Of a stretch of DNA of 64,000 nt, positions 13,339 to 51,553 are shown one piece after another (the first letter of the stretch is position 1; the number at the start of each line of letters is the position of its first letter). This DNA is from Paecilomyces variotii (Eukaryota). Below the pieces are notes generated by a model. The model was not told the DNA's origin. It searched no databases and saw only the letters and a program-made list of their open reading frames with translations. A program made the position numbers and the translations under genes. Where the stretch lies: the NCBI GenBank assembly GCA_004022145.1, contig RCNU01000012.1, one strand, 5' to 3'.

Positions 13339-15703
13339 ATGTCGGCCCCAAGACGCCATATCACGGCCGACGATGCTGCGGAGGGGCCACCGCTAAAGAG
13401 GGCAAGAAAGAAACCTGTCGCGTGCGTATTCCTGCCATTACTTTCTTACCCCAGTTGAGAATCCCTTTTTCTAAGTAGTCAAGATACAGTTGCCAGAGGT
13501 GCCACACGCACAAGGTCAAATGTTCCGGCGAACAACCTTGTTCCCGATGCCGGCTGGCCGGTCATGCCGATACTTGCGAGTACGTTTCGCGCGATCGTAA
13601 ACTGCGAGTAGATGAAAGGTATGTTTAGACATTGTATGAATTGAATGACATACTATCTCCGGACGCGAAGTTAGAGCTTGTGTTGATGCCGGTATTCCAT
13701 CGTCGTGGGTCTATAGTTACATAGATCGACTACTTTCTGAGAACCGTCACCTTAAACGGGAGCTGGAGCACTCTAGAGAGGCGTCTCCCGCATCCAGAGC
13801 TGGCGCGTCCAGACCAGCCATTTCATCACAGGATGATGTCGATCCCAGCATCCAGAATCCGCTTCTGAGCGAGCGGGCGTGGTTCCAGCAGTATGATCCC
13901 TCCGCGCCTCCAATTTACATTGCGGAAGCAGCCTGCACAGCGTTTGCGACTCGATTGCGGCAGTTCCTGACGAAGCAGCCCACGACAGCTCATCTGGCTC
14001 GGACCCAATATGTTAAAGAATCAAGTATGTTGAATTTACAGGATACCGGTGTTCAGTGGCCTAGCCTCACGCAAGCTCGACTGCTGGTCAAAATAGCGTT
14101 CAATCAGTCAGACGAGCTTTATCACCTGATGTTGAGAAAGTCAACGCTGGAGAAGCTTGAAGAAATCTACCAGACTGGACATTTCAACGACGAAGCACTG
14201 ACCTGCAAGTATTTTGCTCTTTTTGCTTTTGGTCAGGTCTACTCTTCGAGGCTGGAGGCATCCGCCGATTGTAGGGTACCTGGGACTGCCTACTATGCTC
14301 GGGCTATGAGTCTCATCCCAATATTACCAGAGAGACCGAGTATAACTCATCTCGAATGCCTTGTATTGCTGGTACGTATCTCGAGTCCTTTGGAGAAGCA
14401 GCGGATTGCTCACGGACAGATAGTCCCTATTCTCATACTTCCTGAATAGACGCCATTCAGGCTATATATTAATTGGCAATGCGATGCGCTTCGCCCTCAT
14501 CATTGGATTGACCCACAACATACCAGAGCGCCAATGCATGGGACCCGTGGAGCGTGAGCACCGCGTTAGAATCTGGTGGGTCATCTACATGTATGACCGC
14601 ATCCTGGGCTCAAAGACTGGATTCCCTCTCCAGATTCAGGATGCAGATATACACGTGGACATGCCGTCCGATGTGGCCGGTGGCGTGGAAAGCGGGCAGT
14701 TTTCTGATATAGAAGACCTGACGGCAAGCATCCAGCTCGCACGAGTCACGGGACAGATTATAGAAAAGGTATATACAAGGAAGAAGCATACCGAGACCTT
14801 CCTACAGAGGGAACAACGGCTGTTGCTCTCCTTGAAGCAGTGGATGCAAGCTCTTCCTAAACATCTTAGGCTCAGACCCGATGGCGTTACACCTAAGCAC
14901 ATCATTTCCCTTCATCTTCAGTTCAACCAGGTTAGTCCCATATCCATTCATCGGTTCTCACAATTTTGCTCATCACTGACACTTAACAGTGCGTAATGCT
15001 AGCTACCAGACCAGTCCTTCTGCACGCCCTCATAGAACTCCAAGACATTCGAGACCCGGCCGCCGGCTGGAAGAACCACGACAACGTCCCCCAGGCCGTT
15101 GTGACCCTAAGCGAGGCCTGCATCCAAGCAGGACGACATTCCCATTCTCTGATCGTCAAAGAATGGATCGACGGATCGCTCCCAATGTTCGGATACTTTC
15201 ATTCTCAATACCTCTTCTCATCAGCTCTAGTGCTGATCATTTCGAGCCTTCTCCCATTCGGAAATCTCAGCGACCTAGGCCTCTTCGAAACGGCCGTCGA
15301 GATCCTCCGTTCCATGAGCGCTCATGGAAATCTCGCCGCTGCTGAATTCTACGCAAACCTAGAACGAATCAAACAATGTCTAGGGGAGAAATGTAACCGC
15401 AGCACGACCAGCGACGTCCACAACTCCACAGAGCAAATGATTCCACGGAACACAGTCTCAGCCGTGGGTACTGCCCCATTCGGACCTGACATCCCAGGAG
15501 GAACTGCATATAGTAGTACAGCGGACTATCCCTTCCCCAGCACCGCTATGGCTACTGGCTTCACTACAGAAATGGCCTTTCAAAAGCCCACTATGCAGGA
15601 GTTTCTGGCCTTGTCGGATATTGATCTTGGTCCATTGGACCCGACGGGCATTGCGGTCGGTGATGCAGATGCGATAAATGCGTACTCGTTATGGACCGAG
15701 TGA
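13339..15703 (+). CDS. Zn(II)2Cys6 transcription factor with fungal-specific TF domain
   Basis: CQRCHTHKVKCSGEQPCSRC..C cluster after the first intron, and middle-homology region EREHRVRIWWVIYMYDR. Multi-exon. In-frame ATGs at 13312 and 13324 are alternative starts. Confidence 0.9.
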
Positions 15704-33228: not shown

Positions 33229-33776
33229 ATGTCAAGTAATCCATCGTCTCCGCCCCCTCTCTCCCATATACTGGAGACATGTATCTATGCGCGAGATCTG
33301 TCGGCTTCAGTTGAATTTTACAAGGGCATCTTCAACATAAAGCCGTTTCTTGAAACGGTATGATCACACCTCTCTCCAGGTTCTCAATGACAGACGCTGA
33401 TAGCATATAGCCCCGGATGTCCGGATTCTCCCTGGGACAGACAACTCTGCTTCTCTTCCAGATCGGAAGTACGCATGAGGATGTTCATCTACAAAATGGC
33501 ACGATTCCCGGGCATGGTCCCACCGAAACAATCAGACACAGTCTCCTCACACCAAGCGACACTCCTACGGAAAAGAACCCTAAACTGAAGCAACATTTCT
33601 GCTTAGCGGTGAATAACCCTGAGGACGTGGATCGGTGGGATGAGCATTTGAGAAATAAAGGTGTCAATGTGACTGCCAGGATGAAGTGGGAGCGAGGAGG
33701 GAGGAGCATCTATTTTGAGGATCCGGATGGACATGTGGGCGAGATCGCATCGAGGGGTTTATGGGCACACTATTGA
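33229..33776 (+). CDS. VOC (glyoxalase/bleomycin-resistance/dioxygenase) family protein
   Basis: Exons 33229-33357 and 33411-33776. ILETCIYARDL..SVEFY, HFCLAV and RSIYFEDPDGHVGEI motifs. Confidence 0.9.
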
Positions 33777-34259
33777 GGAGATGCAGAAATTAGAAAGGGC
33801 ATTCAATAACTGAAGTCACCGTGGGTGAACGTTAACCAGCTCTTTGGTGCTCGCAGAGTCATGAATTTTGGTATTATGGCGGAAGCACCAAATGGCCGTG
33901 AAAATCATTATTCTGACGTGACTTTTACATTGCTAGTTTCGGAATTGATTGGATTGACTCAGAAGGGAATCCAAGCAGTAATGTTATTTACACCTATTCA
34001 GCATGACCTAGAATCATATAACAGGCGTGAGCTATAACTATATCGGTACATTTCCGCAAAATGTCGTGTCTTTGAGCTACAGTACTCGGCTCATCTGACA
34101 AGGAAACTCGACAGATCAACCCATGCGATCAAAGCACTTCTCCGAATACACCAACAGAATTAGGATTAGTCTTGATACACCCGTATACTGTGCCAGATGC
34201 AACGGCCGATACCTCGGGGAAAGGCGTGAAGCCTCCCCTCCTCCCCGATGTATCCCCAC

Positions 34260-34275
34260 CGGGTGCATGCTTCCG
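34260..34275. promoter_or_regulatory. CGG-N10-CCG Zn2Cys6-type site upstream of the ALDH
   Basis: CGG GTGCATGCTT CCG, about 325 bp upstream of the ATG at 34601. Confidence 0.7.
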
Positions 34276-34600
34276 TGAGAGTTGTTATGATCCACTGCCT
34301 TCGTACTTACAACCGGACTTCAGACCGGGAGATCAAACCACATAAAAAAAATGAGGAGTCACTAGAGTATGCAATTAGTAATTGAGGAGGTCATGCAATT
34401 GTAGCGAGTTTCAATTACTACTAGAAATACCAGTAGGAGAAATTACTAACCGGCTATGATGAGACACAATCTATGAGAGATCAATTGAACATTGTTGTAC
34501 TGAATAACATCAAACCATCTTCTTGATTGGATATTCAGCTGGCCATACTTCCTTCTTGCTACGTTGACAAGGAACCTTCGTGGTTCTCATCACGTCGCCC

Positions 34601-36342
34601 ATGAATGGCACCAACGGAAGCTCGATATCTTCCTTATCGAGCCCTTTAAACCTGCACATTAACGGCAAAGACGTACCATCAGACTCATTGAACACGTTTC
34701 CTGTTATAAATCCTCTCACTGGAGAAAGGATATATGACTGCTCCGCGGCGACGAAAGACGATTATGCATCAGCCATTGCTCACGCGTATGCCGCCTACCT
34801 GAGTTGGTCGAAGACGCCTCCATCAACCAGGCGAAACATTTTCCTCCGTGCAGCTGATATCATTGAGACATATCTCGAACAGGATGCACCCGAAATTCTA
34901 GCTGCGGAAGTGTCTGCGACAAAATCATGGGTAAAGCTTAATATCATGGCTGCTGCCGCATTTCTGAGGGAGAGCGCGGGGCTCGTTACACATATCAAAG
35001 GTGAAATTGTCCCGGCTGATAGACCAGGCACGTCGGTTTTGGTCGTCAGGGAAGCAGTTGGCGTGGTATTGGCCATCAGTCCTTGGAATGCTCCGGTAAG
35101 TTACAACCCTTGTCTATAGTCTCGATGCCTCACATCTACAAGTGGTAGTCGACAGTCAGACTCTGATCATAGTAGCTATATGGGCGGTAGCCTGCAGCCG
35201 CTTCTCATGAATGTGATTTCATATCTGACTCTCAGCAATGTAGGTAAACTTGACGGTTCGCGCTATTGCGACAGCGCTGGTATGCGGAAATACTGTGATC
35301 CTTAAACCGTCGGAATACAGCCCGAAGTCGCAGCATCTGGTCGTCCGTGCTTTGATCGCAGCTGGTCTACCGCCTGGGTGCTTGAATTTCTTACCTTCGG
35401 CTCGTGAGAATGCTCCCGAAGTGACTGAATTTGCTGTGAAGCATCCTCTAGTCCGCAGAGTCAATTTTACGGGGAGTGACCGCGTTGGCAAAGTCATTGC
35501 CGGATGGGCGGCTCAATGTCTGAAGCCATGTCTGCTGGAACTCGGAGGGAAAGCCCCAGCTGTGGTGTTGGCAGATGCAGATTTGGAAGATGCAGTAAAC
35601 GCAATTGTCTTCGGCGCATTGGCAAACAGTGGGCAAATATGCATGTGAGTATTGTCGTTGAAGTCTTTTCCCGTTCTATCTACACTATGCGAGGTAGATG
35701 GTGATCTTGCTGAGACTTAAAAATTACAGGTCCACTGAGCGTATCATATTACACTCTTCCATCGCTGCCCCTTTCACAGAGTTACTCATCGAGCGTGTCG
35801 CTAAAGTCAAAGTTGGCAATCACTTCGAAGATCCCTCTGTCTCTCTATCCGGTCTATATTGTGCTGCTGCACCGAAGCGCATTCTCTCTGCTATCGACTC
35901 GGCCATTGCCTCCGGGGCAACCCTACTTACTGGAGATCGTACCCCAGCAGGACCAAACAAGACGATCCTTCAACCGCACATACTCGACAATGTCTCTCCA
36001 GACATGGAAATTTTCCATGAAGAGATCTTTGGTCCGGTCATATGTATCACACGCGCAGATTCCGACGAACAAGCCATCGACCTGGCCAATACAAGCGAGT
36101 ATAGCCTGTGCGCGAGTGTCTTCACAAAGGACGTTCTGCGAGGAATGGAAGTTGCACAACAAATAAGAGCTGGCAGCTGCCATGTTAATGGGCCAACAGT
36201 ATACATCGAACCTCCACTACCAAATGGGGGTACTGGAGGACGCAGTGGATATGGGAGATTTGGAGGAATGGCAGGGGTAGAAGAGTTTACGGAACGAAAG
36301 ATAATCAGCCTAGTAAAGCCCGGGATGAAGTATCCGATCTGA
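34601..36342 (+). CDS. Aldehyde dehydrogenase, vanillin/salicylaldehyde-DH-like
   Basis: Exons 34601-35095, 35244-35644 and 35730-36342. PWNAP, LKPSE, FTGS, LELGGK, GQICMSTER (catalytic Cys) and EIFGP motifs. Confidence 0.9.
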
Positions 36343-36548
36343 GGTTGTGTGATGTGAGTGTTGGGATATATTGCGGAGACGGAACTAACGAAGATTGGAC
36401 CCGAACAAGAGGATCAGGAGACAGCAGCGCAGAATGCAGGCAAGAGAGAAAGTCGGGTAGAACTGTATATGGCACGTGTTTAAAGAGTATTAGGACATAC
36501 GTTAGACGATAAATTATGTATGTACCACGTCTACAGATCGAGGGCAAT

Positions 36549-39500
36549 TTAGACCCCCATAAACCGCTCAAAATCATTCCACCCCATTGTGAGCTGTTGG
36601 AGAGAATCTTGCCATAGCAAAAGCTGTGGTGAAACCCCCTCTTCTGTGAATGAAGGGTCCGCATTTATGATTTCTTGATGATATGGATTTGACAGGTCGT
36701 TGTACACAAGCGAAGCATCATGGCAAGCTGCAAGACCGTCGCTAAACGAGCTAGGTGGACGGGTAAAGATATTGCTGTTTCCATGATCCCGCGCGTGTTG
36801 GGTGGTACGGATTGCATGTGAAATTTGTGATGATTGCCGGCCATTCTCGTCAACACATATTCTATCTTCCTTGGACGATGGCGATCCTAGACCCCTACCG
36901 GATCCCTCGTAAGCAGCCTCTCTAGACGTATCCATGGTATCTCCGGAGATTCCCCTAGGTGGGCTAGCTGGATAGCTAGGTAGGGTCATGATGGCATCCA
37001 TGGCGTTAGAAGCCTCTGCGAGTGTATCCAAGGCCGAGCGAGCGGGGCGATCATGACCTGGGCCTTCGATGGAAGAAGGAGGCAAAGTATCATAGTATCT
37101 TCCCTCGCCAGCACTCATCCCTTTTCCAGACATGGAATGAGGTGTCATTCCTATACCTCCTTCATTTGGAGAGTATTTTCTGGTTGCCATATCCTTTTCT
37201 CTCGCTGCATCTCGAACCGTTCTTGATCGGCTTGGGGCATTTCCTTCATTGTCTGTCCTTGAAGTTCTTGTACCCGTATTGGATGACTGGACGACATCTG
37301 CGAAGTTCTCGGCTACAGATGCGAACCGCTGCATCGTAGAACATTTCGGTAGCAATTTGAGCACATTCTGTAGTTCTGTCACTAGAGAACCTATATAAGT
37401 CTTCGACTTCTTTTCCGCCTCTAGAACGTCCTTTGGAGAGGATGGGTCTGGAACCCAAAGTATTCGTAAAATCAGGACCATTGCAGCCGAATAAGCGTAA
37501 AACACATCGAGCCCTGTAAGGCCATCCAAAGTCTCTGCACTGTTTAGAAGGAGGATGAGATCTGCGATGCGGGATGCCGAAGAAACGCATGTTCGGGCTA
37601 GAAATGCAATCTTGTCAACGGGAGACTTCGCATTAGAAGATACATCCTCCCAAAGATATGGCACTGTTGCCGGGTCTCTCGAATTTGAGGAGATTAGAGT
37701 TAAAAGGCACGGCCGGGAAAGTTGTATTATCAGGTTATGATACTGTATGTGCAGTAGAACCATCCCACGGAGGTGATTCGAAGGATAGCGGGAGCAGAAC
37801 TCGCGTAACTGTGATTGAGATGGCACGGCAGCCTCCGCAGACGTTTTGAATTTCGGAAGTCTCAGGTATGCTGGCAGTCCGTCCTCCCATGCTTGTAACT
37901 CATCGAGGAATTCCCCGGGGGGTGGATTTGACGCCTTGGCCCATGATGAGCCGTTTCTCCAATTTGTTGATTGATACTGGACGCTCATCATCCACCGTAA
38001 ACGACTTGACAGGACCTGTAACTGGAAGCTACATTCTGTGTAGCCTGGAGGATTATATCCTGAGCCTATCATATCGTCAGACGGAAGGCTGGTGTTAACC
38101 TCCTGTTCGTCGATTGCACTTGGACGCCCCAAGGACATGCAAAGGAATTGCTCGAAGCTGTATAAGCTGCACCAGATACGTTTCCTAGTCTCGCGTTCGA
38201 TGGGGCGGAACGAATTATTGATATCATTCCGATGCATTCCAATGGCGATAGCCATACGAGCAGCACAGCCAACGAGTGTCCACGAAGCGTTGCGCTCGTT
38301 AATGCTGTGATAATAGAGTGCGAGCAATAGCAAAGCCTGAACATTAGAATGAGTGCACGTCGTCGATAGGCACGAAATAGCCGTCTGCGCTAGAACCCAG
38401 CAGTGCACACGTAAGTTTTCGTAGTCGAAGTGATCATTATCCGGGACAGCTGCTTTTCTCAGCTTCATAGATAGGACACATCCGAAGGCCAGCATCATAT
38501 GAAGGCAGACTAGCCATCCCTCGTCATGTTCAGTACTTTCCGCGGACTGGTGCAGAACTTGAGAAGAGCTATTCTCCAGTTGTGATGCAAAGAAGCGTTC
38601 CAACTCGTCCTGGAACGTTGGACGGTCAAACAAAGGGAAGGTTGAATGGACGCGCTCGAAGTAGAGACGCTGCAGATTCTCCAGGATCACTGGTGGCAGT
38701 TCCCTAAAACGCCATGCGGACTGAAGAAGATTCTGCAAAGGAGACGATGTCGTTGGATTAAACCCTGCCGGGGATCCAGGGGAGTTTGATCTTCCGTCAA
38801 TGCTTGCACGAGGACTATTTTGCCTATTCGTTCTCGCCTCAAGTGCTTCCGCTACATTGTCGGCTGCAAATCGAGACAATGGCTGTCGTGTCGATACCAG
38901 GTCGCGTAGTTCTCCGAAAAAAGCAAGAGTCCCTGATGGCCCAATATAATGTCGACGTCCAACTGAGTCACGTACCAGGCGTGGAGACTCTTGAATCTGA
39001 CTGATCCGCCGATCGTGCCATGGTTGAGGCTGGAAATCTTGATGGATAGTCCCGGCACCGGTCGATGAGTTTCCATCTTGGTCCTCGTCAGACAAAGACC
39101 TTTCCTGCGACACACCACGGTCCGCGCCTGGTGTTAAGAGACAATCTTCAGATGATGCCACATCACCTGTCTGAGGCATAGCAAAGCCATGTCTCTGCCC
39201 CAACGAGAGCAGATCCTCCACCGTCCGGGTAGGCTCATCGGGAAATGCACTATTGACGATCGCCTCCAAGCAACGATACCTGGAAAAATTAGAATGTCCT
39301 CGAGGTGCATTTATTTTGGCTGGACACGAGCTCACCTGTCTCTGACGGTTTCCAGACTCCCATACAACCTCGTCTTCCGACGAAAGGTCGACACGCATTC
39401 AACATTGTTCTGCTGGCAGGTTCGGCAGCTTTCATCAGCCTTCCGGCGAACGCATTTACATCGTCGCTGTCAAAGATATTCAGTTATGTTACAAGATTGG

Positions 39501-39614
39501 CCAAGTTCATAATTGGTCTCCTGTTCTTCTCACCTTCCGGCATAGATCGCAACTTAACTCAGTCCGTTTGCGCAGTTCCTCAGGAACCCGTCGTCTGCTC
39601 CTCCGCGGTTCCAT
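36549..39614 (-). CDS. Zn(II)2Cys6 transcription factor
   Basis: Two 5' introns give MEPRRSRRRVPEELRKRTELSCDLCRKRRCKC..SCRTC..C, followed by the fungal TF domain (ERETRKRIWCSLY..SLGRP). Confidence 0.92.
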
Positions 39615-39872
39615 CTCAGTATGGATTGAAAGGTTGCAGACTTTCGGAAGTACATGTCCATGTGGGGAAGCGTCTCCGAGGAGGAAGCATGGAATCGGCG
39701 ACAGAAAAGAGACGAAGATGAGGGGCTGCGGATGATGTATTTACTCAATGCCGAGAGACGTTACCGAGAGCTCTTATGACTGCAACAACTCCTTTGGTCC
39801 CTTGTACGAATCTGCTTTTATTTCTGTCAGAGCAAATATTACGTTGATTTCCCGTGCTCTCGTATCTTCGCT

Positions 39873-40748
39873 ATGGCTCCCAACCTGGTCACTCTGCTTG
39901 ATGGTCGCCAGTTGTCCTACGATCTCTCTGGTCCGACCGAGGGTCCTATTGTCCTGCTCTCCAACTCTCTGCTAGCCAACTATACGACCTGGGATCATTT
40001 CGTGAAAGACCTTCACGCGCAGGGGTTTCGCGCCCTGCGCTACGACCAGCCCGGCCACGGCGCGTCTTCCGCGCCCAGCGACCTGAACACAACGACCTTT
40101 CTCACCCTGACTGCTGATGTGAGTGCGCTGTTACAGGCGCTTAAGATCTCAAAGGTCTATGCCTGGATTGGCATCTCTATGGGTGCTGCGACCGGTGCCA
40201 TATTCGTGGTGCAGAACCCCGGTGTTGTCCAGAAGCTCATTCTCTCCGACACCATTACTTGCTCCCCGGGTAATGCTGGCATCGACGACCCTTTCGCTCC
40301 CCGCGTCCAGCTGGCAGAGACCAAGCCTAAGGCCGTCGAAGAGCTGACTGAGGGAACGTTGGCGCGTTGGTTCAGCGAGGAATGGCGGGCTGCTCATCCC
40401 GACGAGACGGACCGGATGAGGCAGTTGATGCGGACAACGAAGAGGGAAGGCTTTATCACCTGTTGTCACGCATTACGGCACGAATCATTTGATCTCAGGC
40501 CATACTTGAAGAACATCGGCCCAGCTGTGGAGGAGACCTTGCTCATCGTGGGTGAACAAGATGCGAATCTTCCAACGACCATGGCGCAGATGCGTGACGA
40601 GATCCAGTCCGCATCCAAATCCCCCGTCGGTTGGGTGATTATCAAGAAGGCTGGACACGTTCCAGTTATTGACAACCGCGACCAGTTTACTGAAGCCGTC
40701 TTTAAGTTCTTGAAAGGAGGTTCGGATAGCCCCCGATCCAAGGCTTGA
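39873..40748 (+). CDS. Alpha/beta hydrolase, 3-oxoadipate enol-lactonase (PcaD)-like
   Basis: Intronless. LSNSL, RYDQPGHG, GISMG nucleophile elbow, RWF, GEQD and AGH motifs. Divergent from the TF across about 260 bp. Confidence 0.85.
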   Translation: MAPNLVTLLDGRQLSYDLSGPTEGPIVLLSNSLLANYTTWDHFVKDLHAQGFRALRYDQPGHGASSAPSDLNTTTFLTLTADVSALLQALKISKVYAWIGISMGAATGAIFVVQNPGVVQKLILSDTITCSPGNAGIDDPFAPRVQLAETKPKAVEELTEGTLARWFSEEWRAAHPDETDRMRQLMRTTKREGFITCCHALRHESFDLRPYLKNIGPAVEETLLIVGEQDANLPTTMAQMRDEIQSASKSPVGWVIIKKAGHVPVIDNRDQFTEAVFKFLKGGSDSPRSKA

Positions 40749-41400
40749 TGGCCCATATGTAACTGATAGCACGCACGACACTTTATGAATATTGATCTTT
40801 TGTTCAATAAATAGAAATCGTCACTATTCTAGAAATTCTTCCTCTATAAAAGAAATATAGTGTGTTGAGTATTACCTGTACCCAGGTCTAAAGAAGCTTT
40901 TCGCGTTATGTAGACCTTTTCCACTGGCAGTCAGTAATATGATCCCATTGTCAAGAGATATCGATAATAATTATTAGCCTTTGAGACCTAGATAGCAAAT
41001 CTGTGCGATCCTTGAGTCGATTTCCCTTTCTGTTCTAGGCCAGATATAGTGCTGCTTTGTGCTCAGCGTTGCTCACGGATTGCTAGAGTGCTCGGGCATG
41101 TTTGCTCAGCGACTGCTCAGTGCGAAGGGGCCAATTTGCTCGGAGCGTCATCTGGCTTTTTTATCCAAGAACCATTAAGATCTCTCAGGTGCATCTACAC
41201 TCGACCAAGCACCAGTCGAATCCTCTTGTGGCAACGCGCCGGCGGAATCGGCCCCCGTTGCCCCTCAACGGAGTTTAACAGTCAACTATACTTACTAGAT
41301 AACTAAATAAGCACTACACGCGAAGACGATAAGTTCCTTCCCTTGTTCGCTTTTTGTTTTGCCCCTTTGTTGACAACGAGAAGGGTCCTTGACTCGCACA

Positions 41401-42657
41401 ATGAACAAGCTTATTCATTATCCAGACATCCTCCTCAAAATCTTGGAGCATGTCGACCTGAACACGTTCCTATCTCTTTATGGAACATGTGTAGCACTCC
41501 ACAATCTCATCATCACTTATCAAGCTACATTAACTGTTACTGTGGCCCAGAACACTTTTCCGGAGGAAATCCTGCGTATACTCGAAAGGATTCATGACGA
41601 ACAGCATAAAGATGGCTATATCCATAACGGCGATGACGATGGTGCAGGTCCCATGCGCAGATATAGTATCTGCTGGCTGCGTGATCTGGTCCCCAGATTC
41701 CTGGCTGTCGTGGCCGTGGATCGCTACCGGCACATGAACGATGGAGCATGCGGATCGAACTACTGGCGACAGGGCATCGCGGCTGCCGATCCGCTAGGAG
41801 ATCCCCTGAGGGCAAGGGTCGCGAATGGGTTTCGAATTATTGCCCGGCTAGGTTGCATTGCGCGAGAAGTGGATATTCAACAGAAGAAAAGTGATATTTC
41901 GACCGAGTCGCAGTTGATCCTGCCGAAGCGAACGAGAGCAGAACGCTTGAGAAGCATAATCCGTTCACGAGGGAAATGGGACGCTGCCCAGGAGATCACA
42001 GCAAGACGAGAAAAGGCGATTGAGAAGAAACAACTCACTTATATCGACACCTCGGTAACACCAAAACAGGCGGCGGATTACCAGCTGGTGGGTTTATATC
42101 TCGACGGCGTATTCTACCCTCTCACCCTTGAGAGCTGGCCCCAGGGCGAATTCAGTCGGAAAAAGAGGACCGGTCCGGGAGGGGTTTGTGCTTCTGGCTG
42201 GCTAACATGGCTCATGTTGCGAGAGGGGATATCGTTACTGTGGCAGCAATGGTGGGTGAAGAGGACGGACCCCGATGCCCCCTCTCTGAAGGAGAGAATC
42301 GAGAGAATATTTTTGCAGCGGAACAAGGAACAGGTGGAATGCGAACGGCAGACTGGGTTGTCGGTTTCTCAGTCGCTATACAGGCTATCCACCGACGACA
42401 GTGAGTGCTGGCGACAGTGGCTCTTTCAGCTCTGCGATGTTACTTATCCTGCGCAACGGCCGGAGCGGCGGTTTTCGCTTGCAGCGGAGACCGAGGAAGA
42501 GGAGGAGGGTTTGGAGTTGGAGAGTATCAGAGTGAATGAAATCATGGATCATGTTGCTTTTCATGTTGACAAGAAGCCCCATATGGCTACTGGTCAGAGA
42601 TACTATATTGATTATACACGGCTTTGCTCGGCCGCTCAACGTCTGGTGCTCCGTTGA
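41401..42657 (+). CDS. Uncharacterized protein with N-terminal F-box-like motif
   Basis: Intronless 418-codon ORF beginning LIHYPDILLKILEHVDLNTFLSLYGTCVALHNLI. The remainder is not recognised. Confidence 0.65.
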   Translation: MNKLIHYPDILLKILEHVDLNTFLSLYGTCVALHNLIITYQATLTVTVAQNTFPEEILRILERIHDEQHKDGYIHNGDDDGAGPMRRYSICWLRDLVPRFLAVVAVDRYRHMNDGACGSNYWRQGIAAADPLGDPLRARVANGFRIIARLGCIAREVDIQQKKSDISTESQLILPKRTRAERLRSIIRSRGKWDAAQEITARREKAIEKKQLTYIDTSVTPKQAADYQLVGLYLDGVFYPLTLESWPQGEFSRKKRTGPGGVCASGWLTWLMLREGISLLWQQWWVKRTDPDAPSLKERIERIFLQRNKEQVECERQTGLSVSQSLYRLSTDDSECWRQWLFQLCDVTYPAQRPERRFSLAAETEEEEEGLELESIRVNEIMDHVAFHVDKKPHMATGQRYYIDYTRLCSAAQRLVLR

Positions 42658-43408
42658 GCTCTATGTCACAGTGGTTGCATGATTGTTCAACAGTTGGTTC
42701 ATGCAGATACCAAATTGGGACAACCTAGGCACCAAGACAATGCTGGAGAAGGCCGCTCGTCATCCTCGTGCCTTTGATAGCCCTGAAGTGCCAAAGACAT
42801 TGACATCAACGATACACCGTCGACACAGAAGGATTTCTACTCGAATTTGAGATAAGTGATAGCGTTTCTAGGACAGGCTGTGTGCAAATAGTCAATGCTT
42901 GTATACTATCTACCTTGGTCTTTTTTCCGAATACACAATATCCTGCTGTCAATTAGTAGTTGCTCGAAATGCTAGGACGGCATTCCATGGCCTGCAATGG
43001 ACAACACCAGACATAGGTGGGTAAATGCAATATCCTCACAACTTCACTAAACAGAGCTGGCACCCCTTATAAGCCATTTAACCCTGGGGACTACTCCATT
43101 ACACTGTGCTTCTGTAAGCTAGTTACAAATGCTCAGCGAATGCTCAGCACTGCTCACGAACTGAGTCAGGCTACAGCCTCACAAAAGCAGCATAGGACAG
43201 AAGAGGAAGCTGAGAGGTCATCACACATATGTGCTACATATATGCTACCTAGGTATAATAGTTAATACACAGACAATGACATATAGCCAAACGCGGCTCG
43301 GTTAAACATCCCTCTGTGAGGCTACCTATGCGCTCTTGGCTTATCTCCTTATTTTCCGGTTTGTCCGTTGAGAGAAAAAGTTCTATCCTTCTCCCCGAGG
43401 ATATGATC

Positions 43409-43426
43409 CCGGATGCATGCATCCGG
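43409..43426. promoter_or_regulatory. Perfect 18-bp palindrome containing CGG-N10-CCG, upstream of the FAD monooxygenase
   Basis: CCGGATGCATGCATCCGG, about 240 bp upstream of the ATG at 43668. Confidence 0.75.
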
Positions 43427-43667
43427 CCTGTCACACTCATGAGAGACGGTAGAACTGGCGCCGTCACTTGCTATGTTCTAGGGATAGGTAATCACATGGT
43501 AGAATATATGGCAAATGGCTTTTACCTCCGGAGTTATGGTCGCAAGGTACTCCGATGATATTCCTTTAAAACGTCAGGGAATCCTGCCTTGAGAAAGGGT
43601 CTTGCAGCATTCAGAAGCATCGCGTCCTTCGACATCCTAGCCGTGTTCGCATAGAGACAGAATCACG

Positions 43668-45073
43668 ATGTCGAAAAGTGTCGTTCCAAGAAAGATCCTA
43701 ATCGTGGGCGCTGGCCTCGGTGGACTTTGCGCTTCCCTCGCATTGCGGCAGGACGGCCATTCAGTCACCATTATCGATGCCGCACCCGAATTTGCAGAGG
43801 TATAAACGTTGATTTATTGAAGCGTTCACTTGACGAGCTATGAACTAACCTTCCGTGTAAAGGCCGGGGCAGGTATCCGGATTCCGCCGAACAGTTCCCG
43901 TCTGCTTATGCGCTGGGGCGTCGATCTCGATAACATGAAGAAGTCGGTTTCAAAACGGTATCATTTTGTCCGTTGGAAGGATGGGACAACTATCACGAAG
44001 TTGCCTTTCGAAAGGGTTGTTGAAACACACAAGGCACCGTATTATCTGGCACACCGGGCAGACTTGCACGCAGCATTGCTGGATGCAGCAAGGAAAGCGG
44101 GAGTCGAGATATACACAAACCAGAAAGTGGACAAATACGATTTCAGCATTCCCTGTGCTATAACAGTTGAAGGAAAGACATGGACTAGTGACCTGATCAT
44201 CTGTGCAGATGGTAGGTAGCAGTGCTACATAAAGCCTGTCTAATAGTGTTCTTCGCGACGCCCGACTAACCCCTCTCTCTAGGGATCAAATCGACAGCTC
44301 GCCCACTGCTGACAGGGCAACCAGACGTTCCTCGCGACACCGGCGACGTGGCATACCGCATCCTCATCCCTGGCAAGGAGCTTCTGGCGGACCCTGACCT
44401 GAAAGAGCTTATCGCCGACCCAGCTACCACGTCCTGGTGCGGTCCTGACGCCCATTTGGTCGGATATCCAATCCGCGACGGCGAGCTATACAACATAGTT
44501 GTATGCGCGACATCTTACGGAGAGACAACCGACGAGGTCTGGGTTGTCAAGGGGTCAAACGAAGAGCTTAGCAAGCGGTTCGCCTCCTGGGAGCCGCGTA
44601 TCCAGAAATTGTGCAAACTTACGCGGGACTTCATGAAATGGCGTCTTTGCGACTTGCCTATTCTGTCTACCTGGGTCCATCCGTCAGGAAAAGCCTGTCT
44701 TTTGGGAGATGCATGTCATCCCATGTTACCGTACTTGGCGCAGGGTGCAGCTCAAGCAGCCGAAGACGCAGCTGTTTTGCGACAATGTCTTGCCAGATAT
44801 GCGGATACACATGAGGCTCTGAAGCAATACGAGAAGATTCGTCTGCCACGCGCATCTACCATCCAGGGTAAGACACGGGAGCATCAATATATTCTCCATA
44901 TTGATGATGGCGAGGAACAACGTGAGCGCGATGAGCGCATGCGCCAGAATTCAGAGATTAACCCAGTCTTCTGGGGCTATGATAAGCGAATGAAGTGGCT
45001 GTTCAGCCATGACGCTGATCTCCTTGAACAGAATGAAACTGTATGGCCACAGGCAGCAGCAGCATCGCTGTGA
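43668..45073 (+). CDS. Group A FAD-dependent monooxygenase (salicylate-hydroxylase-like)
   Basis: Three exons. GAGLGG, EAGAGI, HRADLH, ADG.KS and GDACHPMLPYLAQGA fingerprints. Confidence 0.92.
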
Positions 45074-45756
45074 GAACCATGTCATTCTAAATGGGTTCTA
45101 TCCTGACACACGCTATGGCTTCCAATGTTATCGATAGTTTCAGACCACAATGCTATCTCATATCATGTCTACTGTATTTCTTACAAAGATGTCCTAGCGG
45201 AGAATAAACATACGTGAAGTAACAAACGGATACTGTCCGCATATACTAAGTACCAGAACAGGGAATGTTTGGTTCGGGAAAATCCCGTTCGGATGCTGAC
45301 CGACTCGCCTCCTTTGAAGTAAAGCAAGGCAATACATAGTTAGCGCCTGTGAGTTTATCAAATAGACAAGGGTTTACTGCTTGAACATCCTGGAGAGAAC
45401 CTCCAGATGATGATCACCACTATTTTGAGCCGAGACGGTATTGTCAACCCTTGGGTGACTTTATCTGCGTGCCGCCGCCTGATTACACTTAGTCGTGAAT
45501 CATAGGAGGGTGTCGTTGTGTCATTCATATCTTCCAAAGCAAGAATTGCGACGGAAGTATGTAGTTATGTCGAGAAGAGCCAAGACTGGATAGGACACCT
45601 TGCCTAGGCCAGATATATCCATTAGCTAGTGGAAACAGATATCTCTTTCGTATTGTTTCCCCTTAATCTGAAATCTAGCAGTTCCCCCCGAAAGTAGACT
45701 AACACGGCGGTCTCAACCGCTGACGAACGAGATGATAATAGCTTCGGAGGGGGGAC

Positions 45757-45772
45757 CGGATTCATGTAGCCG
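45757..45772. promoter_or_regulatory. CGG-N10-CCG site upstream of the MFS transporter
   Basis: CGG ATTCATGTAG CCG within CCGG...CCGG, about 355 bp upstream of the ATG at 46128. Confidence 0.7.
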
Positions 45773-46127
45773 GGGGGCGTCGTGCAACAGCTCCTGTCAA
45801 CACCCTCCAACTAATGTCTAGGACGCTGCACAAGGACAAAAATGAAAAGCGGGGGAAAACATGGCTGCCGATACCATCTCGCCAAGGTGGTGGCGTCTTT
45901 ATCTGTAAACCCTACAGTTATCACTGGATAACTTCAATTTGGCCTTCCCCAGATTTTCGTCTTTGGAGAATCTTCACGCTACTTTTAACCCCGCAAACTC
46001 TCACCAGTTTAGAGTTGCGCCATTGAATATATAGATCTCGTATTTACTATAAATGCTCGTTGCATGATATCAAGTGCCATTAGAAGCTCCCAAGTCACTT
46101 GTTTCTACGCACAATTCCATAGCAACG

Positions 46128-47735
46128 ATGCGCGAACCTTGTTCTATCGAAGAGAACGAAGATGTGTCGGAGATGAAAGTCCCCCACAAAGATTGGGAAG
46201 TATCCGATGATGTTAGAGATTCCACAAGTGAAGATGATCTGCACATCGATCGAGCGGAGGAGAAGCGTCTGGTCCGAAAACTGGACATGCGTCTATTTCC
46301 TATTCTTATGCTTCTGTACGTAATGGCATTTCTGGATCGAGTGAATATAGGTGAGTTTGTCCGTTTCGATGATCTTATTATCATCTTGTAAGATCAGACC
46401 ACCATGCGGAAAATGCTCTAATACTTCGTCTCACCAGGGAATGCCCGATTGTTCCATCTGGAGGCAGATCTGGGCCTCAAAGGCGACGACTACCAACTCT
46501 GCGTATCCTTACTTTTCGTCACGTATATCATCATCGAGCTACCCGCGAATCTTTTCCTGAAGAAACTCGGCCCAAGAAACTTCATTCCCTTCGCAGCTAC
46601 TGCCTGGGGTCTTATCGGCATGTGTGCTGGATTCGTTCAAAACAAGGGGGGTTTAATCGCCGTCCGGCTGCTCCTCGGGGCGGCAGAGGCAGGATACTTC
46701 CCGAGTGTCTGTTTTTATCTGTCCTTCTGGTTCCGTCGGCGGGAATTGGGTGTGCGCATATTCTTCCTATTCATCGCGTCCGCAATCTCTGGATCGTGCG
46801 GTGGCCTCCTTGCATACGCGATTGGACATATGGATGGGATAGCGGGATATCATGCTTGGCGATGGTTGATGATTCTGGAAGGACTTCCTACCATCTTTCT
46901 GGGTGTGATAGCTTATTTCATTCTCGCGGATGATCCCATGTCAGCTAGCTGGCTGACAGATCGAGAGAAAGAACTAAGCCGTATTCGTCTACACAGAGAC
47001 AAGACGTTGTTGGGATCGGATGAGCAATCTGGGAGAATACAATGGGATGAGATCATGAAAGGGGTCAAGGACTGGAAGGTTTGGGTTTTCAGCATCGCCC
47101 AACTTGGCACGACGCTCATGCTCTATGGCTACTCGACTTTCCTGCCCACAATCATCAGTGGACTCGGATACTCTGCCATTGACGTCCAGCTTCTCACTAT
47201 TCCATGCTACGCTTGCGGAGCCATCGTCTACTGTATCGTGGCATACTTCTCTGACAAGATCGGTCAGCGTGGTATCTTTGCTGTTGGTGGATGTCTCGTC
47301 GCTTCGACGGGATATGCCATCCTTCTCGGGACAACCAAATACGGCGCTGGGGCACAGTATGCAGGATGTGTTGTTGTTGCCGCTGGACTGTACGTTTCCG
47401 TTGGTATCGGACTTACATGGATGCCGAACAATATCCCGTCGCATTACAAGCGCGCCTTCGCAAACGGTCTACTCTTCATGCTGAGCAATCTCGGAGGTGT
47501 TATCTCATCTTACATTTACAGGACTCAGGACGCCCCTGTATACACGCTGGGACATGCTGTGATGCTAGGATTCGTTACGTCTACGGCAATCATTCTAACC
47601 GCGATGTCGTTTGTACTCCGCAGGGAGAATCAGAAACGAGATCGTGGAGAAAGGGACTACTTGCTGGAGGGTAAGACAGAGGAGGAAGTGGCCAAATTGG
47701 GCGATAAACACCCCCATTATCGCTACATGTATTGA
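46128..47735 (+). CDS. MFS transporter, anion:cation symporter (Dal5/Tna1-like) family
   Basis: Exons 46128-46350 and 46438-47735. RKLDMRL, LDRVNIGNAR, RLLLGAAEAG, WRWLMILEG and a C-terminal YRYMY. Confidence 0.92.
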
Positions 47736-48003
47736 ACCTCTCATTAAATGATACTCTCATGAATATGACGAAGCAGTCTTTCGTTGATAGAGTCAAACTT
47801 TCCTTGTCGAGGACTGAAGGTAGACGCTCCAATTTCGACTTCGTGATGCAACCAAGTCAACATTGGTCGGTTTCTTCGTATACTTTCCACATACATGGAA
47901 TACTTAGCAGTATGTAAGTAAATAGTAACTACTAGTAGCAATTCCAACTTCTCCACAGCCCCACGAACAAAGTGCTATCCATCAACCCCGCATTTGCACC
48001 ACA

Positions 48004-48019
48004 CGGCTAGATGCTTCCG
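48004..48019. promoter_or_regulatory. CGG-N10-CCG site upstream of the ADH
   Basis: CGG CTAGATGCTT CCG, about 385 bp upstream of the ATG at 48403. Confidence 0.65.
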
Positions 48020-48402
48020 ATTACAAGGGAGAATAAACCCCTAGGGTATATGTCCGAAGCGTTGGATTTCGTGACGAATGATCTTTCTACCAAGGCATAG
48101 ATGCGCTGAAGCTACCATAACCCCCGCGCCGGGAGGGGTAGAAGGGAGTCTAGATGAACGGAATATTGGAGCCGAGCCAGCTGGCTTACATATTTACTTT
48201 TATCTAGAGTATAGAATCAGTTTCGTCTGGGGAATCAAATTACCTGAGATTAGGATCCTTGCTTTTCTTCAACTGATTGTATCAACAAGGGAGGGGAGAA
48301 CTCTTAGACGACGCTCATACTTTTTCTTCGATTGATACAATTTCCGGATGTATATTTTTTCAACACTAAATATCATCTAAACAAAAGTTCATCTTATTGA
48401 CA

Positions 48403-49772
48403 ATGGGCTCGACAATCCCTGCGACTCGCAAGGTAGCAGTGACAACCTCTCCAGCCACTGTCTCCGTAACATCGCTTCCTATTCCGCAACCTGCAGGGAC
48501 AGAAGTTCTTCTCCAGATCGAAGCTACCGGTATCTGCGCTACGGATCTGCATATCGTCCATCGTTCGCTGTCGTACTTTCAACCCAAAGTCGACATACAT
48601 GGACACGAAGGAATTGGACGAATTGTTGCGCTAGGGCCAGATGTTGATGCCTCAAAGTGGAAGATTGGGGATAGAGTCGCGCATCGGTGGATATATAGGT
48701 GGTGTAAGGAGTGTGAGCCATGTCGAGCTGGACTTGAGCAGTTCTGTGACAAGAGGCAGTTGAGCGGGTTGCATGTGGAGGGGTGTTGGGCTGGTGCGTA
48801 TCAGCCATTGTACTGTAGATTTATGATGGGCTCCAGGACTGGAGCTTCTATCTTGGAGCTGTGGACTAACTAAAGACATCTTATGTTGCAGAATACACCG
48901 TTGCAGACACGGAGTATATGCTGCGTATTCCGGAAGAGTTGAATGCAGCAGAAGCAGCTCCCATTCTCTGTGCAGGTGAGTCAAAAAGGAATTTGTATCC
49001 GATATAAACTCATCGCGGGCACTGATGTATTTTTAGGAACGACCGTATATCGCGCACTAAGGACTTCTGACCTCTCTCCGGGCCAGTGGATTGCAATCGT
49101 CGGTGCTGGAGGGGGACTAGGTCACTTGTAAGACCTCCCCCAGATCCTTATATGCGAAGCTAACACAAACCAGAGCGATTCAATACGCCAAAGTGCAGGG
49201 TCACAAGGTCCTTGCAATTGATGGCGGGAAAGAGAAAGGCACGCTCTGTACAGACCTAGGCGCAGATGTATACGTCGATTTTACCAGTACGAAAGTAAGT
49301 TTCTCACGAAATGAGACTGTCCGTTCATTATACTCATATATTTCAGGATATCACTGCAACCGTCATTGACATCACCTCTGGTGGTGCCCATGGGATTCTC
49401 GTGACCAGTTCGAGTCCCCGCGCCTACGAACAAGCTATTACATATGTGCGCAAACTGGGCATTATCGTTTGCATTGGAGCTAGTAAGTGCTTGATTGTGT
49501 TGTGATGGCGGAATGTCTGGACAAATACTGATTCGTAACCAGCATCGACGAAAATGACATTCCCCATTGGACCAGAGTACTTTGTCGGCAAAGGTGTGCG
49601 TCTAACAGGCACGAGTACAGGCACGCTGCGCGATACCGAGGAGGCATTGAAATTGGTGCAGGAGGGGAAAGTCAGGCCGATTATTGTCGAGAAGAAATTG
49701 GAAGATATTCAGGAATGCTTGGATCTGCTGGAGAAGGGCGATGGCGTGGGGAAATTCGTTGTCAAGCTATAG
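48403..49772 (+). CDS. Zinc-dependent medium-chain alcohol dehydrogenase
   Basis: Six exons splice in frame. GICATD, GHEG, CKECEPC..C, APILCAG and GAGGGLG motifs. Confidence 0.92.
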
Positions 49773-51553
49773 GTGCTGTATCCTCTGGAGCGAAGCTCGC
49801 TGAGCTTGAATTCTCTAGCAAGCAACTACTTAACTCGGCGTCTTTATCTCGGTGGTGGAGCTAAAGGGCGACCCGACAAAAGGTCTGCATGTAGGCAGGC
49901 TCGGACATATCCTATCCTGGTATATAGCTTGAAGGAGCAATTTGTGAATATAACCGCAAATATGAATGTTTATGTCTACTGTATGTTTTGATCAGATCTA
50001 CTGCTGGCCATTCAGAACGAAGAGACCAGTGTCTCGATCTTTACATAGATGGCCTTCACGAAGGTGGTAAACGCACACGCATTTGCACCCGAGATTCATC
50101 AACAGAGCTGTTTGAATCAGAGTCAATGAGGCACTCAAGGTACATACATACCATCGAAATGTTTCCCATGCAGCTTATCTAAAAGAAGATCCAGATAAGT
50201 CAGGACAAGTCTCTCCGTGGACAGGAATCAATTCCTCTATGGTCCTTCATTGAATCACAAACGCTTCCAGACTCCATCATGTCATAATTGCCCGCATGTA
50301 TAAACATAAAATCAAAAATCCCTCGATCACCAGGCTTCAATGGATCACAGGCCATGAACATAGAGCGAGCTTAGCAATACCGCTGATAGTTACCAGTCTC
50401 TACCATTCGAGAAAAAGCTAGCTCTTCCCCATTATATATCTCCAGTTAGATTAGTCAATTCACAGTAGATGGATTCGATTCCTCAACTAATCCCCAGCAA
50501 CAATTGCCCTTAGTCAATTAGAGCGGAATACTCGATAATTATAGACAACACCCTTCGCATGTAACCAAGTAAGGTAGGTAATACAAGGCTTATACGAAAC
50601 AGTCAGTATGCATTAGTCAATTATTAACTACAGTCAGTTGGTTTGCTAAGCGAGCGTCCAAGAAAGATAGTTAATCAACTTGTTAGACCAACAGATCGTT
50701 GGTTACAAGATTCGAATATTTCTCTCAATCCTTCTTTTCGTCATTCACTACGTATCGTATCGCATCCAATTCAACGGGTCGATTTGACAGTGATAAGCAA
50801 GCAATGGTTCTTTTCCCTAGTTACTCAAACGCACGGCCACCTAGCGCCTGAGGCAATCCACATAGCTGCATCAAGCCACCATCTCAACGCAGACGTATTC
50901 CATCATGAAATCTTCCAATATCATTCTCACCCCGTTTAGCTTTTGAATGAACCACCGCGTGGACCCAGCATTGATGGATCTAATGCAGTCAAGGACATTG
51001 TGGTGGTTTCCCTTCAGTGCGGGGACGCCCGGAAACGCTCGCTTAGCACCGTCGGAACCCCAGATGGAGACAGAGCGAGCTGGGTGAGCTCTCGTGGCCA
51101 GCTGGCACATTCATTCATTCCCCAGGGTCAGGGACAGATGGATGGAGCGAGTGCTAAGGAGCTGAGCTGGCAATAGCTTGCGATTCGAGGTTCCGGAGAT
51201 GGTGCTGTCGTACGTCATATTGCACTGCGAATCCTCGTGAAAAAAACCATTGGCAGCGCTACGACTACGCAGAGAAAAAAAGCAATCAAGAGAACCAACC
51301 AGCCCGGAAAATCCGGACGAGTTGAAAGGAGATGCATTATATGGGCCACCGGCCCCCGATTTCATGAGGAATTGGCAACGGGAAATGTGGGAGTAAGTGG
51401 CCATTTCAGACTCTATAGGTACATAAAAGTTTGGTAGAAGATGCTGACGAAAGTAGTACATGATTGATTGATTAAACCACGACCGATCCCTCCTCAACAC
51501 CCCGAGTATTGTTGCGTGTCAATTGTGAGGTGCATAATTGACCATAAAATTTT

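Follow-up and report, generated by a model that had tools for sequence, protein, structure and literature searches.

The 64-kb window analysed here, a stretch of contig RCNU01000012.1 from Paecilomyces variotii (assembly GCA_004022145.1), contains a group of neighbouring genes, together with four copies of an inverted CGG-N10-CCG element, each located upstream of one of them. From left to right, the group comprises: an aldehyde dehydrogenase (ALDH; 34601..36342, + strand), whose N-terminal exon is nearest to salicylaldehyde and vanillin dehydrogenases; a 980-aa transcription factor (TF) of the Zn2Cys6/Fungal_trans type (36549..39614, - strand), assigned by Pfam, homologue and structure searches; an alpha/beta hydrolase (39873..40748, + strand; poly(A) end 40835), whose nearest solved relative is 3-oxoadipate enol-lactonase; a protein without Pfam family (41401..42657, + strand), placed by a protein language model next to fungal F-box proteins (score 0.96); a flavin adenine dinucleotide (FAD) monooxygenase belonging with the decarboxylating hydroxybenzoate 1-hydroxylases (43668..45073, + strand; introns 43798-43860 and 44211-44281, from RNA; poly(A) 45230); a transporter of the major facilitator superfamily (MFS; Pfam MFS_1; 46128..47735, + strand; intron 46349-46435, from RNA; poly(A) end 47971); and a zinc-type alcohol dehydrogenase (ADH; 48403..49864, + strand; introns 48974-49034 and 49483-49542, from RNA). 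The gene models of ALDH and monooxygenase combine RNA joints with inspection of the reading frames.

The four elements, to none of which a strand is assigned, were located by a direct search of the window, which agrees in position (34260, 43410, 45757, 48004) and sequence with an earlier reading of the same DNA, made from its letters (the sequence-only reading). Site 1, CGGGTGCATGCTTCCG (34260..34275), precedes the ALDH start codon (34601) by 341 bp; site 2, CCGGATGCATGCATCCGG (43409..43426, with the frame starting at 43410), lies 258 bp before the monooxygenase ATG (43668); site 3, CGGATTCATGTAGCCG (45757..45772), is found 371 bp before the ATG of the MFS gene (46128), and site 4, CGGCTAGATGCTTCCG (48004..48019), 399 bp before that of ADH (48403). 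The distances, calculated from start codons read in the sequence, thus span 258-399 bp, within the 240-400 bp originally indicated. The matrix scores of sites 1 to 4 are, in this order, 22.9, 26.3, 21.8 and 19.9 bits. Site 2 is a perfect palindrome of 18 bp (43409-43426), as had also been noticed before; site 3 gives its best alignment to the other three in reverse complement. All four sites are placed in the 5' intergenic DNA of co-oriented neighbour genes: the poly(A) end of the gene upstream of ALDH (34038) is 222 bp from site 1, and that of the MFS gene (47971) 33 bp from site 4, so that these two sites are located between the 3' end of the preceding gene and the next gene.

The four-site consensus, CGG-nTrCATGCwT-CCG, approaches the palindrome CGGATGCATGCATCCG. 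When site 3 is flipped, five of the ten spacer columns are invariant (T2, A5, T6, G7 and T10). A fifth, weaker CGG-N10-CCG, with a related core (CGGCTGCAGGCTACCG on the reverse strand; 35185..35200, no strand assigned), has the next-best score after the four sites (14.2 bits) and falls within the first intron of ALDH (35096-35243), inferred, without RNA support, from reading frames and GT..AG ends. The ADH promoter contains a second CGG-N10-CCG (CGGAATATTGGAGCCG, 48159-48174; 7.2 bits), featuring a core unrelated to the motif.

Taken by itself, the CGG-N10-CCG frame is not enriched in the window: 15 sites, corresponding to the rate of about one per 4 kb assumed by the sequence-only reading, are observed where 10.75 +/- 2.76 are expected, and a count of 15 is reached in 9 of 100 shuffled sequences. 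The degenerate consensus proposed at that time matches no position of the 64 kb other than the four sites, and no match at all is found in 100 shuffles; this test is however circular, because the pattern was derived from the same four sites. Three further tests were therefore considered, all designed to allow for choosing the sites afterwards. One takes all possible quartets of CGG-Nn-CCG sites spanning no more than 15 kb, allows each site either orientation, and counts the invariant columns, with order-2 Markov windows as a null: at N10, none of 400 simulated windows reaches the 5 columns observed, and two reach 4. When spacings from 1 to 20 are all included, 5 columns are reached in 7 of the 400 simulated windows; in the real window, the maximum for spacings other than N10 is 3. 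In the second, based on column sums, the observed score is 33, and the highest of 300 simulations 32 (30 if limited to 15 kb); the best-scoring set features the 35185 site in place of site 3.

The third, a leave-one-out analysis, points in the same direction. When a symmetric matrix is built from three sites and the left-out site is ranked among 63,985 positions, the ranks obtained are 4, 1, 4 and 4, i.e. directly behind the training sites. In the matrix scan of the whole window the four sites (19.9-26.3 bits) are followed by the 35185 site (14.2), and the top match outside the cluster scores 12.5: within the 64 kb, the full motif is confined to the cluster. A scan of 16-mer seeds was performed, without assumptions, on seven promoters: in those of ALDH, monooxygenase, MFS and ADH, the top seed corresponds exactly to these sites, with a score of 39, which is marginal, being equalled in 5 of 60 shuffles. 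The 18-bp palindrome is not unusual on its own, as 46 of 200 null windows hold one of at least 18 bp, and when up to two mismatches are allowed, the relaxed pattern CGGNNNCATGNNNCCG stays at the expected frequency (24 observed, 23.8 expected). Altogether, the core shared by the four sites is unlikely to be random, as originally maintained, with p roughly between 0.002 and 0.02; this estimate does not count the placement of the sites before adjacent, co-oriented, functionally related genes.

The long exon of the TF is 100% identical to a 980-aa Paecilomyces variotii protein, here P0003. Identity to the homologues is 71% for P. lecythidis and for 'P. variotii No. 5', and falls to 50-54% for those of Thermoascus and Rasamsonia, T. 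crustaceus, R. emersonii and R. byssochlamydoides being among the source species; a metagenome scan with the TF alignment returned one coding fragment of 1,414 bp (L001), with no flanks. The fungal-specific TF middle homology domain, PF04082 (Fungal_trans), is recognized with 105 bits (E 3.9e-30), and is the only entry in the precomputed Pfam list of P0003. In the N-terminal region, residues 21-51 (C-DL-C-RKRRCK-C-VRRKADES-C-RT-C-QQNNVE-C, that is CX2CX6CX8CX2CX6C) contain six cysteines which satisfy the zinc-cluster spacing CX2CX6CX5-12CX2CX6-8C; a zinc-cluster domain is present, but divergent. Of the solved structures, Gal4 matches best (E 7.5e-5), in an alignment extending from the zinc cluster across linker and coiled coil to a shared 'FP' motif, followed by LAC9, Leu3 and Hap1; the zinc cluster is aligned with those of Gal4 and LAC9. 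Relative to Gal4, P0003 lacks two linker residues and has two additional ones between its third and fourth cysteines. Given this Gal4-like architecture, and a spacing set by linker and dimerisation region, a 10-bp spacer would be compatible with the protein. A complex prediction with zinc and two copies of residues 12-100 scored 0.16, the mark being 0.32, and speaks neither for nor against dimerisation.

The enzymes encoded around the TF are related to those of aromatic catabolism. For the monooxygenase, the solved matches include an unnamed FAD protein (8r2t, E 1.2e-56), decarboxylative vanillate 1-hydroxylase (E 2.4e-53) and the chain 8gsm, named '4-hydroxybenzoate decarboxylase' (4-hydroxybenzoate 1-hydroxylase; E 7.5e-49). 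The matches to a vanillin dehydrogenase-type ALDH and to a vanillate hydroxylase-type monooxygenase are strong at the family level; salicylaldehyde dehydrogenase and 4-hydroxybenzoate 1-hydroxylase, however, score about equally, and the matches do not single out one substrate. By these similarities, the genes fit a vanillin/vanillate-type catabolic cluster, which would proceed from an aryl alcohol to the aldehyde, to the acid and to its decarboxylative hydroxylation. A methoxyhydroquinone 1,2-dioxygenase (MhdA-type, homogentisate-dioxygenase-like) was not found among the part of the window's long frames that was searched against Pfam.

Among the same frames, the only match to a dioxygenase superfamily is a glyoxalase/bleomycin-resistance/dioxygenase (VOC) protein, encoded by two exons directly upstream of ALDH (33230-33776, + strand; Pfam E 2.6e-8; poly(A) 34038). 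Among solved structures it is closest to lactoylglutathione lyase and FosB, rather than to ring-cleaving dioxygenases. The VOC gene, which shows RNA cover in X17 and has no motif site before it, may be part of the cluster. The F-box-like protein encoded next to the TF could act in the control of regulator turnover.

The sequence-only reading described the sites as belonging to four promoters. This is correct in that all four are found 5' of genes; site 2, though, is included in an RNA contig of the monooxygenase. The contig (43245-45230), spliced and polyadenylated, starts 165 bp before site 2 and runs through it, and for this reason the term promoter is unproven for this site. RNA contigs cannot define a transcription start; given where this contig starts (43245), at least part of the monooxygenase RNA in that sample was initiated before the site. 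The resulting leader (43245-43667) is 423 nt long and contains several upstream ATGs, the first at about 43276, pointing either to a regulatory leader or to the use of another start further upstream. An alternative upstream start, used in non-inducing conditions, would explain a contig running through the site.

Nearly identical copies of the stretch are found in food-fermentation and grain metagenomes, as well as in cultures carrying the label organism A, whose pure-culture runs X22-X24 contain about 0.01 of the sampled words. Four near-identical strains or samples were compared over 16 kb (33800-49800): they feature 36 substitution places and 8 indel rows, none of which falls in the four sites. 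As about 0.14 substitutions are expected in the 64 bp of the sites, this absence shows no constraint. An extra ATATC, after position 40788 in the 3' untranslated region of the hydrolase gene, is present in all four runs, indicating that the window differs at this place from every sampled strain.

The likeness between sites 1 and 2 extends beyond the motif. Their surroundings generate a 40-bp alignment with a score of 31 (z 6.7), where 100 shuffles yield 23 at most; z does not exceed 2.8 in the remaining 11 pairwise comparisons. The shared block includes a CTCCCCGA box, found on the + strand at 34241..34248 in the ALDH promoter and at 43391..43398 in that of the monooxygenase, with an identical offset of 19 bp upstream of the site. 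The box as such is not enriched in the window (4 copies against 2.15 expected; 14 of 100 shuffles reach 4). These two promoters may carry a bipartite element; since the 40-bp block is found only at sites 1 and 2, part of their likeness may stem from a second factor or from common promoter ancestry.

In the divergent promoter of TF and hydrolase, the best match to the motif is a degenerate look-alike, AGGAAGCATGGAATCG (39682..39697, no strand assigned; 5.8 bits), in which both end triplets are imperfect; the string GGAAGCAT is common to this look-alike, site 1 and site 4. Relaxed motif searches gave no convincing additional sites in the hydrolase/TF or F-box promoters. TTGACAA and ACAAGGG are further shared k-mers; in three of its five copies TTGACAA is located just 5' of an ATG, resembling leader context.

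By analogy, the closest known counterpart of this arrangement is the Otf1p system of Candida parapsilosis, alike in geometry, gene types and logic. According to the paper describing it (PMC8929692), Otf1p is a cluster-encoded Zn2Cys6 protein, homologous to QA-1F, which binds the 16-bp motif GGR-N10-WCC before MNX1, the gene of a 4-hydroxybenzoate 1-hydroxylase of the decarboxylating type; HBT2, an MFS gene, is preceded by the motif as well, and binding at MNX1 was demonstrated by electrophoretic mobility shift assay (EMSA) with mutant extracts and mutated competitors. For Neurospora QA-1F, a 16-mer site, GGATAATCGATTATCC, is reported in the same paper (PMC8929692). Common to both systems are a Gal4-type regulator, encoded inside a hydroxyaromatic catabolic cluster, and a 16-bp inverted element with a 10-bp spacer, placed upstream of a decarboxylating hydroxybenzoate 1-hydroxylase and of an MFS permease. 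They differ in the end triplets, CGG/CCG here and GGR/WCC for Otf1p, and in the core, which here has a CATG centre; moreover, binding is demonstrated by EMSA there and predicted here. The name of a quinate activator is carried by none of the 64 TF homologues.

The general statement of the sequence-only reading, that Zn2Cys6 dimers bind spaced inverted CGG triplets, agrees with PMC10954478, where inverted, long-spaced CGG pairs are the target of Gal4-type dimers, and Gal4 itself binds CGG-N11-CCG, with the spacing set by linker and dimerisation region. The four sites share with the Gal4 target UASG the inverted CGG triplets and the long spacer, in agreement with Gal4 being the best solved relative of the TF; the spacer, however, is 10 here and 11 there, and the pathways are unrelated. 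In Saccharomyces, the Put3 site is CGG-N10-CCG, identical in frame and spacing, and JGI labels three of the TF homologues as 'proline utilization trans-activator'. The Put3 family, suggested for P0003 by these names, was rejected: 16 solved chains match at E <= 10, and the DNA-binding domain of Put3 is not one of them, and the link to Put3 comes, therefore, from automatic names only.

As to the pathway, the vanillin route of Aspergillus niger is described as comprising VdhA, VhyA and MhdA, together with a maleylacetate reductase and an esterase, OmeA (PMC8336404, PMC12388069), and conversion of vanillic acid to methoxyhydroquinone is reported for P. variotii (PMC12388069). The cluster resembles vdhA/vhyA/omeA in the presence of a vanillin dehydrogenase-like ALDH, a vanillate hydroxylase-like FAD monooxygenase and an ester/lactone hydrolase. 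In A. niger, in contrast, only mhdA and omeA adjoin, whereas the present cluster unites three to four steps with a permease and a TF; no MhdA-type dioxygenase is found among the window frames searched against Pfam, and OmeA is described as a carboxylesterase, the hydrolase here being enol-lactonase-like. The regulation section of a 2025 A. niger review (PMC12388069) mentions, as regulators of aromatic catabolism, only TanR/TanX, SdrA, WarA/B and Far proteins, and within that section no specific regulator is named for the vanillin/vanillate route. Literature searches returned no match for CGG-N10-CCG or CGGN10CCG, and no report in which a transcriptome of this cluster is connected with P. variotii and vanillin.

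As the likeliest reading, it seems to us moderately probable that the four 16-bp elements are upstream activating sites, to which a homodimer of the TF encoded at 36549-39614 would bind. Each zinc cluster of the dimer would read one CGG, with linker and coiled coil determining the distance of 10 bp between the triplets and the conserved inner bases (T2, the CATG centre and T10) adding specificity. The homodimer would co-induce the four structural genes, coding for an aryl-alcohol dehydrogenase, an aryl-aldehyde dehydrogenase, a decarboxylating hydroxylase and an MFS permease. In favour of this interpretation are the non-random core, the leave-one-out ranks, the placement of the sites, the functional coherence of the genes, the Gal4-like N-terminal region of the TF and the precedent of Otf1p. 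Binding by this TF is plausible; dimerisation, activation and the inducer are likewise predictions.

A number of observations weigh against this interpretation. The Zn_clus family (PF00172) is detected in P0003 with 18.0 bits (E 0.0032), under the Pfam cut-off of 21, and in the structural alignment the 'crlkklkc' of Gal4 is paired with 'crkrrckc': on both grounds, the reading of CGG by P0003 is an assumption. The divergent promoter of TF and hydrolase and the promoter of the F-box-like gene have no canonical site, the 5.8-bit look-alike being the best found. Three cluster genes (TF, hydrolase and F-box-like gene) are thus left without a site, and the claim that the sites define the regulon of the TF was overstated. 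To these points must be added the absence of the 40-bp block and of its CTCCCCGA box at sites 3 and 4, the monooxygenase transcript containing site 2, the lack of enrichment of the bare frame and the marginal score of the seed scan.

Some of the same observations would fit a different factor, either a Zn2Cys6 protein encoded elsewhere, such as a broader aromatic/fatty-acid regulator, or a heterodimer, binding to a motif which is real, with the cluster TF acting via another sequence. We regard this as unlikely: within the window the motif is found only in the cluster containing the TF, the Gal4-like linker and coiled coil suit a long-spaced inverted repeat, and the usual case, as demonstrated for Otf1p/Gtf1p by EMSA (PMC8929692), is that of a cluster-encoded Zn2Cys6 protein acting on palindromes shared by its own cluster. 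Its appeal lies in the TF zinc-cluster domain falling under the Pfam cut-off, in the lack of a site both in the TF's own divergent promoter and in that of the F-box-like gene, and in two literature reports: the unlinked A. niger regulator FarB affects growth on vanillic acid (PMC12388069), and zinc-cluster proteins can be mutually dependent for DNA binding (PMC10954478).

A mere chance likeness, produced by a pattern-seeking choice of four among 15 CGG-N10-CCG frames, appears quite improbable. The frame occurs at chance level, the consensus was defined post hoc, the seed scan is marginal (5/60), the palindrome unremarkable (46/200), and the null corrected for spacing (1-20) still reaches five invariant columns in 7 of 400 windows; yet no simulation equals the observed values at N10 (0/400) or by column sums (0/300), left-out sites rank between 1 and 4 of 63,985, and the location 5' of adjacent, related, co-oriented genes is not counted by any of the tests. 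Very unlikely, finally, is a functional unit other than the 16-bp element: either a composite of about 40 bp, present at the two core enzyme genes and made of the CTCCCCGA box and the palindrome, or a half-site CGG(A/G)(A/T)GCAT read by a monomer, with the full frame then being partly incidental. Such a unit would account for the alignment of sites 1 and 2 (z 6.7, with the other 11 pairs at z <= 2.8), for the box, of which the window contains 4 copies, lying exactly 19 bp before both, and for GGAAGCAT being common to sites 1 and 4 and to the promoter between TF and hydrolase. The box, however, is not enriched (4 against 2.15 expected; 4 reached in 14/100), half-sites are common (CGGN[AT]GCA has 28 matches in the window, mostly outside promoters), and sites 3 and 4 keep the full frame and the core without the box.

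If the binding of the TF homodimer to the four sites is true, an inducible promoter/TF pair would become available for engineering the conversion of vanillin or lignin monomers, the 16-bp motif might be used to find unlinked genes of the pathway, e.g. a ring-cleavage dioxygenase or a maleylacetate reductase, and a further case would be added to the relation between linker and spacer length in zinc-cluster proteins. Regulation of this kind is of the type expected for cis/trans control in fungi, and would establish no new principle even if confirmed. A broader proposal, which we consider doubtful, is that of a first regulator-operator pair for fungal guaiacyl-lignin catabolism, meaning the route from vanillyl alcohol to vanillin, vanillate and methoxyhydroquinone: it would be composed of a divergent Gal4-like TF, a CGG-N10-CCG site with CATG centre, a 40-bp bipartite module at the two core enzyme genes, and an F-box protein controlling the stability of the TF.

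Two features located elsewhere in the window may be mentioned. The first 2000 bp (1-2000) have a GC content of 0.34, against about 0.5 elsewhere, and adjoin a peptidase A4 gene. The longest palindrome of the window, TTCCATGAGCGCTCATGGAA, is a perfect one of 20 bp, found at 15310-15329 among open reading frames without Pfam match.

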